A stretch of DNA of 64,000 nucleotides. Origin: Candidatus Enterousia sp. (GTDB taxonomy: Bacteria > Pseudomonadota > Alphaproteobacteria > Rs-D84). Both the position numbers and the translations under genes were made by a program. The DNA lies in the NCBI GenBank assembly GCA_045648885.1, contig JAZROV010000003.1:3179-67178 (forward strand). The letters are read 5' to 3'. Under the pieces are notes generated by a model, which was given only the letters and a program-made list of their open reading frames with translations, made no database searches and was not told the DNA's origin. Shown here piece after piece: positions 20,961 through 22,425 of the stretch (within the stretch, counting starts at the first letter, position 1; each line of letters opens with the position of its first letter).

Positions 20961-22052
20961 ATGAGCGATATGTGGGAAGGTGCCACTTGGAATGAAAATG
21001 GTGAATTAGTTATAGATGTTTATGCTAATCCACCGGATGTGGGACCAAATGAGTTTGATGAAACCGATGAGGATTTTGAATATGAAACTGATGAAGAATT
21101 AGATGAGAACGAACCGAAACATACCTATGCTACAATTGATTGTGGTGGTGAATGTGGCGGATGCGTTGCTTTGGTTGTTGATGACGAAGTTGTGTCTGGA
21201 CCACCATTTCATCCAAATTGTCAATGTTCATTAAATTTATCTGATATAGAAAACGCGAATTATCATGATTCTCATTTGCATCAAGATGTCGCAAGCGATA
21301 GAAGTGTGGATACTCGCGATATCAAATGGTTAAAAATGGCTTTGGTCAAACTTGGCTACTATACCCCTGATTCCAGAGCGGGAGAATCCAATAAAAGACT
21401 AAATCAATACCCAAATCAAAGATTATTTGATGCAATAGAAAATTTTAGAAAAGAAAATAAAATCAAAGAAACCGGTGCTGTAAAACCAGGTCATTGGACA
21501 GAAGTAAAAATAAATGAAGCATTAAAAAAGGAACGCATGGATAAAATGAAAATAAGCAGCGAAGGCATTTCTTGGTTAAAAGGTAAAGAAGATAAAGTAT
21601 TAGATAAGCAAGGCAACCATATTATTTACGATGACCAAACAGGCAGACCTGTTAATACAAACGAACCTTTGCCGCGTGGTGCAACAATTGGATATGGGCA
21701 TTTAATAAAATCTGACGAAGATTTTAGAAATGGAATAAATGAAACAACCGCAACCGAATTATTACGCACCGATATCACAACCGCAGAACATGCAGTAAAA
21801 AATAATATATCTGTTCCGTTAAAACAAAATCAATACGATGCGTTGGTGTCTTTGGCTTATAACATAGGTGCCAAGAATTTTGCAAATTCAACAGTTGTTA
21901 AATATATAAACAATCCGAATTTTCATAGTTCTGTATATCCAAATTTAGAATCTGCATGGAAAGCATGGAACCGTTCACAAGGTGAGATATCAAACGGTTT
22001 AATTAACCGCAGACAAAACGAATGGGATTTATATAATCGTGGTATATATTGA
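20961..22052 (+). CDS. Multidomain muramidase: acidic N-terminus, MuF-type HPNC.C motif, peptidoglycan-binding domain, GH24 (T4/lambda-type) lysozyme
   Basis: ATG 20961 with RBS AAAGGGAG. PPFHPNCQCS motif. PG_binding_1-like DIKWLKMALVKLGYY...FDAIENFRKENKIKETGAV. GH24 pattern SSEGISWLKGKE...IIYDDQTGRPV...ATIGYGHLI...QNQYDALVSLAYNIG. Confidence 0.8.
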   Translation: MSDMWEGATWNENGELVIDVYANPPDVGPNEFDETDEDFEYETDEELDENEPKHTYATIDCGGECGGCVALVVDDEVVSGPPFHPNCQCSLNLSDIENANYHDSHLHQDVASDRSVDTRDIKWLKMALVKLGYYTPDSRAGESNKRLNQYPNQRLFDAIENFRKENKIKETGAVKPGHWTEVKINEALKKERMDKMKISSEGISWLKGKEDKVLDKQGNHIIYDDQTGRPVNTNEPLPRGATIGYGHLIKSDEDFRNGINETTATELLRTDITTAEHAVKNNISVPLKQNQYDALVSLAYNIGAKNFANSTVVKYINNPNFHSSVYPNLESAWKAWNRSQGEISNGLINRRQNEWDLYNRGIY

Positions 22053-22083
22053 TTTGATTTCTGTTATTATATGATTTAAAATA

Positions 22084-22425
22084 ATGCGTATGAAAAAAAT
22101 TATTGCGTTTTTTGCGTTCTTGATTGGCTGTAGTTCTGCTAACAGCCAGTCATGTGATTTATGTGGTAACTGGTCTTTTGATAAATTTGAATATGTCGGG
22201 CATATAACCACAGATTGTGAAAGTACTGCTCAGCATTTTTATGCAAACACTTATATTAAAATAGATGTTCGCAATTTTACTGTTGGCGAATATGATTTGG
22301 ATGAGAAAGCTCAAGAACTTTTTGTAAAAACTGAAGACAATTTAACAGAAAAGTTTTACGTATCAAGTAAAGATTCTATTTATATTTTTTTAGACGGATG
22401 TCGTTTTTATTTTAAACGCGAATAA
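22084..22425 (+). CDS. Small lipoprotein (113 aa), candidate immunity partner of the muramidase
   Basis: Lipobox MRMKKIIAFFAFLIGCSS. Lies 31 nt downstream of the lysozyme gene, on the same strand and in the same cassette. Confidence 0.6.
   Translation: MRMKKIIAFFAFLIGCSSANSQSCDLCGNWSFDKFEYVGHITTDCESTAQHFYANTYIKIDVRNFTVGEYDLDEKAQELFVKTEDNLTEKFYVSSKDSIYIFLDGCRFYFKRE

Follow-up and report, generated by a model that had tools for sequence, protein, structure and literature searches.

A leaderless GH24 muramidase with a MuF-derived zinc ribbon and its lipoprotein neighbour, a probable effector–immunity pair in Candidatus Enterousia

Polymorphic toxins built on the MuF domain were predicted for temperate phages in 2012 (Zhang et al., PMC3482391) and 2017 (Jamet et al., PMC5576092), and Apk2 and Bxa are their characterised representatives (PMC11699363, PMC12226406). 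The MuF domain is held to be capsid-targeting (PMC3482391, PMC5576092, PMC11699363), and the delivery route and biological role of these toxins have been described as unknown (PMC11699363). We analysed a 64,000-nucleotide stretch (the window) of a Candidatus Enterousia assembly (G000; 835,793 bp, 21 contigs, 94.5% complete; order Rs-D84, Alphaproteobacteria), in which a gene for a 363-amino acid (aa) GH24 muramidase (P0001, the effector) is followed by one for a 113-aa lipoprotein (P0002). On sequence grounds, the two are probably an effector–immunity (toxin–antidote) pair of a polymorphic toxin system. Like the MuF toxins, this system has a conserved, MuF-derived N-terminus, swappable C-terminal toxins, small adjacent immunity genes and spare immunity genes. 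Unlike them, it retains only the last ~35 or ~55 MuF residues, in a short and a long class of N-terminus, respectively, and P0001 fails the MuF profile PF04233. Its genes are chromosomal cassettes, neither in a prophage nor beside portal or terminase genes, whereas the characterised members sit in prophages. Its warheads target peptidoglycan and its immunities lie in the envelope, whereas the MuF toxins characterised so far work in the cytoplasm, and no lysozyme or peptidoglycan warhead appears in the list of Jamet et al. (PMC5576092). Finally, its host is a 0.84-Mb genome with a domesticated T7-like particle, from a reduced-genome symbiont lineage. What appears to be a minimal MuF remnant, of ~35 residues, is joined only to peptidoglycan-targeting warheads, and the family is new relative to the published MuF toxins.

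The Tlde1/Tldi1 and Tse3/Tsi3 pairs of type VI secretion systems (T6SSs) also combine a leaderless peptidoglycan effector with an adjacent periplasmic immunity protein (PMC9638812), and the Tlde1 domain (PF10908) is among the warheads of the present family. In contrast to those pairs, the immunity partners found here have no Pfam family, the N-module is different and there is no T6SS, with TssC (PF05943) absent from all 41 genus genomes and the Escherichia coli control positive.

The family was delineated by a homologue search of 5.8 billion proteins, from which 121 homologue clusters were classified. The first ~195 residues of P0001 (the short N-module, short-N) recur at 60–89% identity before a GH108 domain (PF05838), a Tlde1/YkuD domain (PF10908/PF03734) or a second, divergent GH24 domain (GH24b), and its own GH24 half (GH24a) is found again, at up to 98% identity, after a distinct and longer N-terminus (long-N) with a weak match to Phage_Mu_F. 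The combination of long-N and GH24a accounted for 41 of the 121 clusters, followed by short-N with Tlde1 (31), GH24a (18), GH24b (17) and GH108 (4). All four C-termini target peptidoglycan, as judged from their Pfam families. A polymorphic toxin system in which two N-modules have been recombined with four peptidoglycan-targeting C-termini is thus well supported by sequence comparison. Short N-modules were present in 32, long ones in 64 and either of them in 80 of the 151 sampled Rs-D84 genomes, a single genome having as many as four copies; within the genus, GH24a was found in 23 of 41 genomes, Tlde1 in 19 and at least one of the two in 28. The family is accessory, yet very common in Rs-D84 and Enterousia genomes of ~0.9 Mb. 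The Enterousia lineage comprises gut bacteria with genomes below 1 Mb that have lost most biosynthesis and are probably reliant on partner cells (PMC12306168). Present in at least half of Rs-D84, an order of uncultured gut bacteria, the family probably matters for this partner-dependent lifestyle (PMC12306168), as expected of genes kept in such reduced genomes.

The partner gene changes with the enzyme. About 50 loci (L numbers below) were fetched and the gene abutting each full-length effector was tabulated; covariation was read in about 30 of them. GH24a effectors (at least 72% identity) were followed on the same strand, at +29 to +44 nt, by a P0002-family lipoprotein in all five full-length loci and in four truncated ones. 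These loci include that of a long-N gene (L003), whose partner P0124 is clearly homologous to P0002. GH24b was paired with a convergent lipoprotein of 312–332 aa (3/3), GH108 with convergent signal-peptide proteins of 124–186 aa (5/5) and Tlde1 with a same-strand protein of 100–128 aa bearing two to three transmembrane (TM) segments (15/17). The lipoprotein abutted a non-GH24a gene in 0 of 25 cases, and two more divergent long-N GH24a genes had another partner, a convergent secreted Cys-rich protein. Fisher tests associated the lipoprotein with GH24a (p=2e-4) and the TM protein with Tlde1 (p=1.5e-7), p values that overstate independence because the loci are related. The partner gene, therefore, follows the C-terminal enzyme domain and not the N-terminus. 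Envelope features (a lipobox, a signal peptide or TM segments) mark all of the partner proteins, none of whose families is in Pfam; a resemblance of the convergent Cys-rich partner in L061 and L067 to LprI/DUF1311 was considered, not confirmed by Pfam and dropped. All these immunity families (lipoprotein, 318-aa lipoprotein, secreted Cys-rich protein and three-TM protein) are new and provide candidate inhibitors of GH24, GH108 and Tlde1 enzymes.

Nucleotide comparisons place the exchange point inside the effector gene. The match to Tlde1-type loci covers 20838–21518 (90.6%), that is, the promoter, the leader and the N-module to aa ~186, and then ends. The match to L042, a locus with an unrelated N-terminus, covers 21618–22508 (95.2%), comprising the GH24 part, the lipoprotein gene and 80 nt more. 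Because the identity to L042 exceeds that of any N-module match, we conclude that warhead and immunity gene travel together. The recombination junction lies at aa ~187–197, just past the PG_binding_1-like domain. In two further loci, L006 and L007, the N-module and the lipoprotein gene (22048–22424) are matched separately, a new warhead and a new partner having been inserted between them; the lipoprotein gene has, therefore, been left there as an orphan immunity gene. In L074, L057, L039, L063 and L051, runs of Tlde1 or GH24 fragments are found downstream together with surplus partner genes, and orphan arrays of this kind are typical of polymorphic toxin loci (PMC3482391). The architecture, the polymorphism, the covariation of the partners, the transfer as a unit and the envelope location of the partners can all be read from the sequences themselves. 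An effector–immunity cassette, as opposed to a prophage lysis module, had already been proposed by an earlier reading of the window (the original prediction), and the polymorphic family, the partners that track the C-terminus and the downstream orphans bear it out.

The effector gene runs from the ATG at 20961 to the stop codon at 22052 and the lipoprotein gene from 22084 to 22425, as first predicted. The parts of the effector are listed in Table 1. Its AlphaFold2 (AF2) model, built from a 26-sequence alignment, has a predicted local distance difference test (pLDDT) score of 73 and shows a disordered stretch (aa 1–51), a small beta unit (54–80), helices (118–194) and a confident GH24 domain (200–363). 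Within the disordered stretch, the conserved tag has low confidence and two short strands, and the acidic linker, whose disorder had been foreseen, differs in length among homologues. As also foreseen, the protein has no signal peptide. What had been described as a PG_binding_1-like repeat is PG_binding_1-like but a single domain; PF01471 scores 14.7 bits in P0001 (E=0.036; cut-off 23) and is, thus, sub-threshold in Pfam, while close relatives reach 17.8–19 bits and distant relatives of aa 105–190 pass at 27–56 bits.

The enzyme domain matches GH24 (PF00959) at E=5.7e-29 and 101.4 bits (cut-off 22.3), and PHROGs returns endolysin families for the effector. Foldseek, which had been suggested for both proteins, relates the GH24 part to P22 lysozyme, AbLys1 and SpmX (E ~1e-7) and to the FAHEc1 endolysin, with probability 1.00 to 2anv, 8app, 7m5i and 6h9d. 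The putative catalytic residues are E210 (KGKE-D in P0001, L-EG in homologues), D224/225 and T242. The first two were assigned by manual alignment to ‘REEG...YSD’ of P22 and to the L-EG homologues, and T242 was placed on the ‘PTIGVGH’ motif of P22 by the HMMER alignment; a 16-residue insertion separates the catalytic Asp and Thr in P0001. A complete GH24 domain with YDD..G and TIGYGH motifs had been recognised beforehand, but the ‘EG’ taken as catalytic (aa 201–202, in SSEG) aligns with the non-catalytic ‘SSNG’ of P22, and the glutamate is E210.

The predicted zinc ribbon of the effector (CxxC...HPNCxC) is spelled CGGECGGC...PPFHPNCQC at aa 61–89, and its C65, C68, H84, C87 and C89 are invariant in 26 family members of both N-terminal classes. 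Short and long N-modules are unrelated apart from this ribbon: hhalign aligned P0001 63–97 with 146–184 of the long-N protein P0025 over 33 columns (90% probability, E=1.6e-6), in the zinc-ribbon segment only. Long-class relatives match PF04233 at profile positions 57–111 only, with 21–30.4 bits against a cut-off of 29.6 (30.4 bits for P0025), and a short-class relative reaches only E=0.39, at positions 91–111. As a positive control, viral contigs were found to contain PPFHP[NH]C in over 545 stretches; one of these, L118, has the motif at the end of the MuF domain of a portal–MuF fusion protein beside a terminase. Because of the alignment between classes, the invariant residues, the long-class profile matches and the L118 control, we regard the HPNCxC motif as a true MuF remnant, although P0001 is not a MuF-domain protein by profile. 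The MuF assignment of PPFHPNCQCS in the original prediction thus holds for the terminal motif, the only part that resembles MuF.

Full short N-modules are limited to the Enterousia lineage, with eight representatives at E<1e-30 in an exhaustive HMMER search. No relative of the short N-module was found in 50,697 GenBank phage records or in IMG/VR, only generic MuF motif matches being seen, and no second MuF-motif protein was found in G000, for example, in the particle cluster described below. The segment of aa ~105–190, in turn, is a widespread PG_binding_1 domain, and several distant relatives have, besides this domain, the C-terminal MuF half and a C-terminus that varies. One from another organism, P0179, carries a serum-amyloid-A-like domain (PF00277, E=1e-21) after PG_binding_1 and the C-terminal half of MuF, and another, P0186, carries Ntox44. 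Outside Enterousia, the scaffold of PG_binding_1 and mini-MuF thus carries different warheads. For two further such relatives, P0201 and P0205, the contigs were too short for the genomic context to be read.

P0002 begins with a signal peptide and lipobox, MRMKKIIAFFAFLIG-C16, that fit [LVI][ASTVI][GAS]C. The lipobox LIGC had been noted previously; G15 and C16 are invariant in 23 homologues, as are four further Cys residues. The protein contains no proline, and its model predicts a small all-beta fold (pLDDT 79). Weak likenesses to lipocalin-like proteins, Omp19 and the LupI beta-barrel (TM-score at most 0.44) were set aside, and no fold family is claimed.

Table 1. Features of the effector–lipoprotein unit, its surroundings and the particle cluster. 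Positions are those of the window unless a contig of the assembly (G000:C) is named.
Feature	Position	Strand	Remarks
Promoter	20838–20866	+	−35 TTGCTT (20838–20843), 17-nt spacer, extended −10 TGATATAAT (20858–20866); read from sequence
Leader terminator 1	20881–20906	+	GACGGC-ATTTT-GCCGTC then T7; terminator scan
Leader terminator 2	20915–20938	+	GCCCGC-CTTTC-GCGGGC then T7; terminator scan
Ribosome-binding site AAGGGAG	20947–20953	+	Strong site, 7 nt 5' of ATG
Effector aa 1–25, conserved N-terminal tag (MSDMWEGATWNENGELVIDVYANPP)	20961–21035	+	Kept in all short-N members
Effector aa 26–52, acidic disordered linker	21036–21116	+	15/27 residues D/E; pLDDT 30–36
Effector aa 53–92, zinc-ribbon remnant of MuF C-terminus	21117–21236	+	C65, C68 ... 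H84, C87, C89
Effector aa 117–194, PG_binding_1-like helical domain	21309–21542	+	AF2 helical, pLDDT 73–89
Effector aa 205–363, GH24 muramidase and stop codon	21573–22052	+	Pfam, PHROGs, Foldseek, HMMER
Lipoprotein P0002, cognate immunity candidate	22084–22425	+	113 aa, lipobox LIGC, Cys16
Intrinsic terminator ending the two-gene unit	22546–22577	+	Terminator scan
tRNA-Glu	18929–19003		Array lies downstream
Array order (R, repeat module)	18929–24457		147-aa ORF, R, GNAT (minus), R, effector + lipoprotein, R, 257-aa ORF (minus), R, 239-aa ORF (minus)
Repeat module, copy A	19919–20161		89% identical to 22468–22711
Repeat module, copy B	20705–20825		Directly 5' of effector promoter
Repeat module, copy C	22407–22711		Directly 3' of lipoprotein gene
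Repeat module, fourth copy	23500–23620		Four copies in all bracket cassettes
Domesticated T7-like particle cluster	G000:C12:40590–52834		Portal, split large terminase, fibre N-terminus, tail tube B + A, major capsid, 136-aa Hydrolase_2

Because the effector is leaderless and all partners lie in the envelope, delivery into the periplasm of other cells, with immunity against attack by sister cells, is suggested, following the logic of T6SS and Xanthomonas type IV secretion system (X-T4SS) effectors. The restriction to peptidoglycan warheads and envelope immunities likewise implies that the toxin reaches another cell's periplasm from outside. Once there, the GH24 domain would cut the glycan strands of the neighbour's peptidoglycan, with the PG_binding_1-like domain anchoring the effector on the wall and the N-terminal part (tag, acidic linker and MuF zinc ribbon) serving as the delivery module. 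The lipoprotein would be exported to the periplasm and would most likely bind and block this muramidase, shielding sister cells with the same cassette. Diversification would proceed by swapping a segment of C-terminal enzyme and immunity gene behind the conserved promoter, leader and N-module, and old immunity genes and toxin fragments would stay downstream after the swaps. We infer enzymatic toxicity, physical neutralisation and cell-to-cell delivery for this pair.

The leader of the effector gene points to a possible vehicle. It consists of a promoter, two terminator hairpins in tandem and a ribosome-binding site. An alternative, longer open reading frame (ORF) begins at TTG 20838, which is not the real start because the frame crosses both hairpins and homologues begin with MSDxW. 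The whole layout, with the promoter in the same position, is kept in the 28 distinct family leaders collected, from both N classes, and the hairpin sequences differ. An AAAGGAG-type ribosome-binding site also keeps its position in the family leaders. Across 23 aligned leaders, helix 1 is 91% and helix 2 is 90% paired, each with compensatory changes in four of six pairs. Overall, 90.6% of the alignment cells pair, compared with 37–58% when the partners are slid, 8 of 12 pairs show compensation and 0 of 500 shuffles reach the score. In L061, the genes for a short-N Tlde1 effector and a long-N GH24 effector are 1.8 kb from each other, with nearly identical leaders (5860–5997 and 8743–8880); the leader, therefore, belongs to the recombining unit.

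Such leaders are rare in the genome. A G000-wide scan found only 15 tandem-terminator pairs. Of the eight that are followed by an ORF of at least 80 codons, four have a short or doubtful one; the other four are clear cases, and they alone have an extended −10 promoter upstream, an element for which TGATATAAT is the common form in G000. They precede this effector, the first gene of a particle cluster, a 396-aa Mtd_N receptor-binding protein (C2:103815) and a stand-alone GH24 gene (C21:13139), with leaders at 20838–20960 of the window, near C12:52928, at C2:103738 and at C21:13067, respectively. The same leader type was found before the particle cluster in 30 of the 30 Enterousia genomes examined. 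We infer a common antitermination-type switch for these leaders. A specific sequence motif common to the four was also sought and rejected, CAATT..GACGG being present in three and not convincingly in all. A further tandem-terminator pair inside the cluster (C12:51099, minus), between the putative scaffold and major capsid genes, suggests processive antitermination along it. Mtd_N, the N-terminal domain of the phage major tropism determinant, is encoded at C2:103716–105005, behind a promoter and two terminators, and at C17:12570–13240, behind one terminator, both well away from the particle cluster; in L006, too, an Mtd_N gene is present, 5 kb from the effector.

The particle cluster is T7-like and domesticated (portal at C12:40590–41813, phrog_332, E=2e-65; tail tube B, E=4e-96; major capsid protein at C12:50058–50885, E=3e-72), and its first gene is present in 30 of 31 high-quality genomes. 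Its terminase gene is split by a block that encodes candidate regulators (C12:44272–45306 and 45335–45976). It is the best candidate vehicle because the effector carries a MuF remnant, capsid-targeting according to the literature, and shares its leader architecture with the cluster. The phage connection that the original prediction had implicitly denied is, therefore, supported on both counts. That the effector is cargo of this domesticated podovirus-like particle, similar to a gene transfer agent (GTA), is a serious though tentative proposal, in which the MuF remnant would be a capsid- or portal-targeting piece and the effector would be switched on with the particle genes through the common leader. 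A more far-reaching version, which we hold to be doubtful, sees the particle as a toxin-armed, kin-discriminating delivery device and not only a GTA. The ~35-residue MuF ribbon would then suffice to load swappable warheads into or onto it, one antitermination switch would fire particle, fibres, lysozyme and effector, and only cells with the matching periplasmic immunity would survive the attack and could receive DNA. If true, this would give MuF toxins a concrete delivery route and would be the first GTA-like element with a polymorphic toxin cargo, in a lineage probably living off other cells; we know of no GTA with such cargo. GTAs with dispersed loci, such as RcGTA, whose head-spike, tail-fibre and endolysin/holin genes lie away from the main cluster, resemble this arrangement of a host-owned cluster with scattered Mtd_N fibres, lysozyme and effector, apparently under one control element. 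Unlike those HK97/siphovirus-like GTAs, the particle here is T7-like, and its DNA transfer is putative. The common terminator-gated leader is a testable link between the toxins and this host-owned particle.

Several points weigh against the pair or its link to the particle. P0001 gave no PF04233 match at E≤0.1 in Pfam, and its overlap with MuF is small. To our knowledge, T7-like phages do not use MuF; MuF proteins occur in phages with SPP1-, Mu- or HK97-type packaging modules, with muf beside the portal gene. The T7-like cluster itself lacks a MuF gene, and in no case does the effector lie next to it; since the cluster is core and the effector accessory, the effector cannot be an essential part of the particle. 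A common leader architecture is not proof of a common regulator, and only the housekeeping NusG was found when G000 was searched for a NusG paralogue as antiterminator, with no antiterminator detected. The warheads are restricted to peptidoglycan, in contrast to classical polymorphic toxins, whose repertoire includes nucleases and other domains, and this restriction would also fit a wall-breaching helper enzyme. P0002 matches no Pfam or PHROG family and has no significant relative in the PDB by Foldseek (best E=0.045), and its candidate role as an inhibitor derives from genomic context.

The pair could instead be delivered into neighbours by a Rickettsiales-like type IV secretion system (T4SS), a route that we consider unlikely. 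X-T4SS effectors are leaderless peptidoglycan hydrolases with lipoprotein immunities. In these respects, and in the frequent presence of PG-binding domains, the X-Tfe/X-Tfi pairs resemble the present one, and a T4SS is encoded in the genome: VirB4 was found in 31 of 31 high-quality genus genomes, with the G000 homologue at C2:85544–86125. However, the T4SS is core and the effector accessory, with no signal of adjacency or co-occurrence between them. Known T4SS signals, including the conserved XVIPCD of X-Tfes, are C-terminal, whereas here the conserved and probably targeting part is N-terminal and the C-termini are four unrelated enzymes (the XVIPCD profile was not searched). Such a route would also explain neither the MuF remnant nor the terminator-gated leader common to the phage-derived genes. 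The VirB6-like system at 41–48 kb, to which the cassette had originally been linked as a possibility, fared no better, as four ORFs at 42526–47739 and the ORF at 41164–42501 had no Pfam match at E≤0.01 and a VirB6/TrbL identity was rejected for those at 42526–47739.

Somewhat less likely still is that the protein diffuses as a bacteriocin resembling pesticin or colicin M. It would be freed on lysis of the producer, possibly together with particles, be taken up across the outer membrane by way of an N-terminal epitope and the disordered linker, and act in the periplasm, where the immunity protein would shield kin. Pesticin, which has a T4-lysozyme-like fold, is paired with Pim in Yersinia pestis, and colicin M with Cmi; like the effector, they are modular toxins that attack peptidoglycan or its precursors in the periplasm and have a periplasmic immunity and a disordered N-terminus with a short epitope. 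The layout of P0001 (tag, disordered acidic linker, binding domain and periplasm-acting warhead) is colicin-like, some family partners are convergent or integral membrane proteins, as are the immunities of pore-forming colicins, and GH24b variants match the Pesticin family weakly (PF16754, E=0.0018). One TolQ/ExbB homologue is present in each of 13 genomes. A TonB-dependent receptor (PF00593) is present in none of 13 Rs-D84 genomes, with controls positive, which makes a TonB route into kin unlikely and is relevant only if kin are the targets. Moreover, no receptor-binding domain is recognisable, the cassette has no lysis gene and is not on a plasmid, and the MuF zinc ribbon would be left without a role.

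The evidence that ties the effector to the particle, namely the MuF remnant and the common leader, would serve equally for a virion-associated pilot enzyme of the GTA-like particle that opens peptidoglycan locally for DNA entry, like the transglycosylase domain of T7 gp16, with the partners limiting damage to the recipient. This is an improbable reading. All warheads do target peptidoglycan, no gp14/15/16-type internal core genes were seen in the T7-like cluster, and lysozyme domains for entry are frequent in polyvalent phage proteins (PMC5512222). On the particle reading, as with these virion-associated hydrolases and ejection proteins, a wall-cutting enzyme would ride in a podovirus-type particle and act in the recipient periplasm. 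The genes of such enzymes, however, belong to the structural module, show no polymorphism and come without immunity genes. If it were essential for entry, the enzyme would be expected to be core and stable, whereas this family is accessory, multi-copy and fast in swapping warheads; the dedicated, covarying immunity genes and orphan arrays are hallmarks of antagonism, and the Tlde1 fold is that of a known toxin (PMC9638812).

A lysis cassette, in which the GH24 endolysin frees particles and the lipoprotein and small membrane proteins act as spanins or holins, is very improbable. The classical order of endolysin and o-spanin is an endolysin gene followed by that of a small lipoprotein, as seen here; small proteins with two to three TM segments follow the Tlde1-type genes, the PHROG matches are to endolysin families and the leader is common to the particle genes. 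An o-spanin, however, is a short, proline-rich lipoprotein paired with an i-spanin, with a holin adjacent and phage late genes around. P0002, by contrast, lacks proline, is predicted to be a folded beta protein at 113 aa and has no i-spanin partner; the window cassette has no TM partner and no phage genes nearby. Partners change with the enzyme domain, and some are 318-aa lipoproteins on the opposite strand, unlike spanins or holins. An N-module of 195 aa, with its PG-binding domain and polymorphic junction, is foreign to endolysins, and GH24 is missing from 18 of 41 genomes though the particle cluster is core. That the cell uses the protein on its own wall, as a housekeeping autolysin or remodelling enzyme with the lipoprotein as its regulator, can be practically dismissed: Alphaproteobacteria have co-opted GH24 domains for functions of the cell, one of the best structural matches is SpmX and Enterousia has peptidoglycan (RodA, MreB and MrdA are retained, PMC12306168; an Amidase_3 gene lies in L001, Pfam), but the effector has no export signal, its gene is accessory and, where looked at, not in every Enterousia genome at the syntenic position, and it sits between repeats in a cassette array, polymorphic and with orphan fragments downstream.

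The effector–immunity reading also agrees with the surroundings of the genes. As the original prediction had noted, phage structural genes are absent nearby: none was detected by Pfam or PHROGs among the adjacent ORFs screened within ~6 kb of the pair. A locus embedded in a recognisable prophage in relatives, which the original prediction had named as a refutation, was not seen either: in six relatives with 15–21 kb of Pfam-annotated context, it lies outside any prophage with structural genes, among housekeeping or island genes. Neither in the window nor in these six relatives is the gene in a packaging or head module or beside portal or terminase genes. In L003, positions 1–9513, 5' of the long-N effector, hold a decayed integrated element with a serine recombinase, DUF2924, a 133-aa Terminase_6C-like fragment, DUF2779, a KAP NTPase and DUF559. 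As a tblastn query against G000, this Terminase_6C fragment gave no match, and the particle cluster was located by PF17289 instead.

The pair forms one cassette of an array downstream of a tRNA-Glu gene (Table 1). Its repeat module R is 120–240 nt long and contains CGTGAATTGCACAG; about eight copies recur in a second array at C21:5848–13129, with weaker, partial matches on contigs C15 and C2. No recombinase was seen at either array (window 18929–24457; C21:5848–13129). The stand-alone GH24 gene mentioned above lies within C21:13041–15063 and encodes a 172-aa protein 64% identical to the GH24 domain of the effector, behind the same promoter and double-terminator leader and without the N-module. 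It is followed by a convergent, overlapping gene for a 469-aa, membrane-anchored and very Cys-rich protein without a Pfam family. Stand-alone GH24 genes occur in about 12 of the 41 genus genomes, and a core endolysin of the particle was rejected as their identity since they are not core. The 147-aa ORF that heads the window array (19447–19890) has a 134-aa paralogue in the C21 array (C21:9562–9966; MTENYDILKENNLRQMVVEYE...). In the cassette next to the pair, the 257-aa ORF (22731–23504, minus) has marginal Pfam matches to Tox-PLDMTX and Transglut_core (E ~0.09) and may be another effector-type cargo gene.

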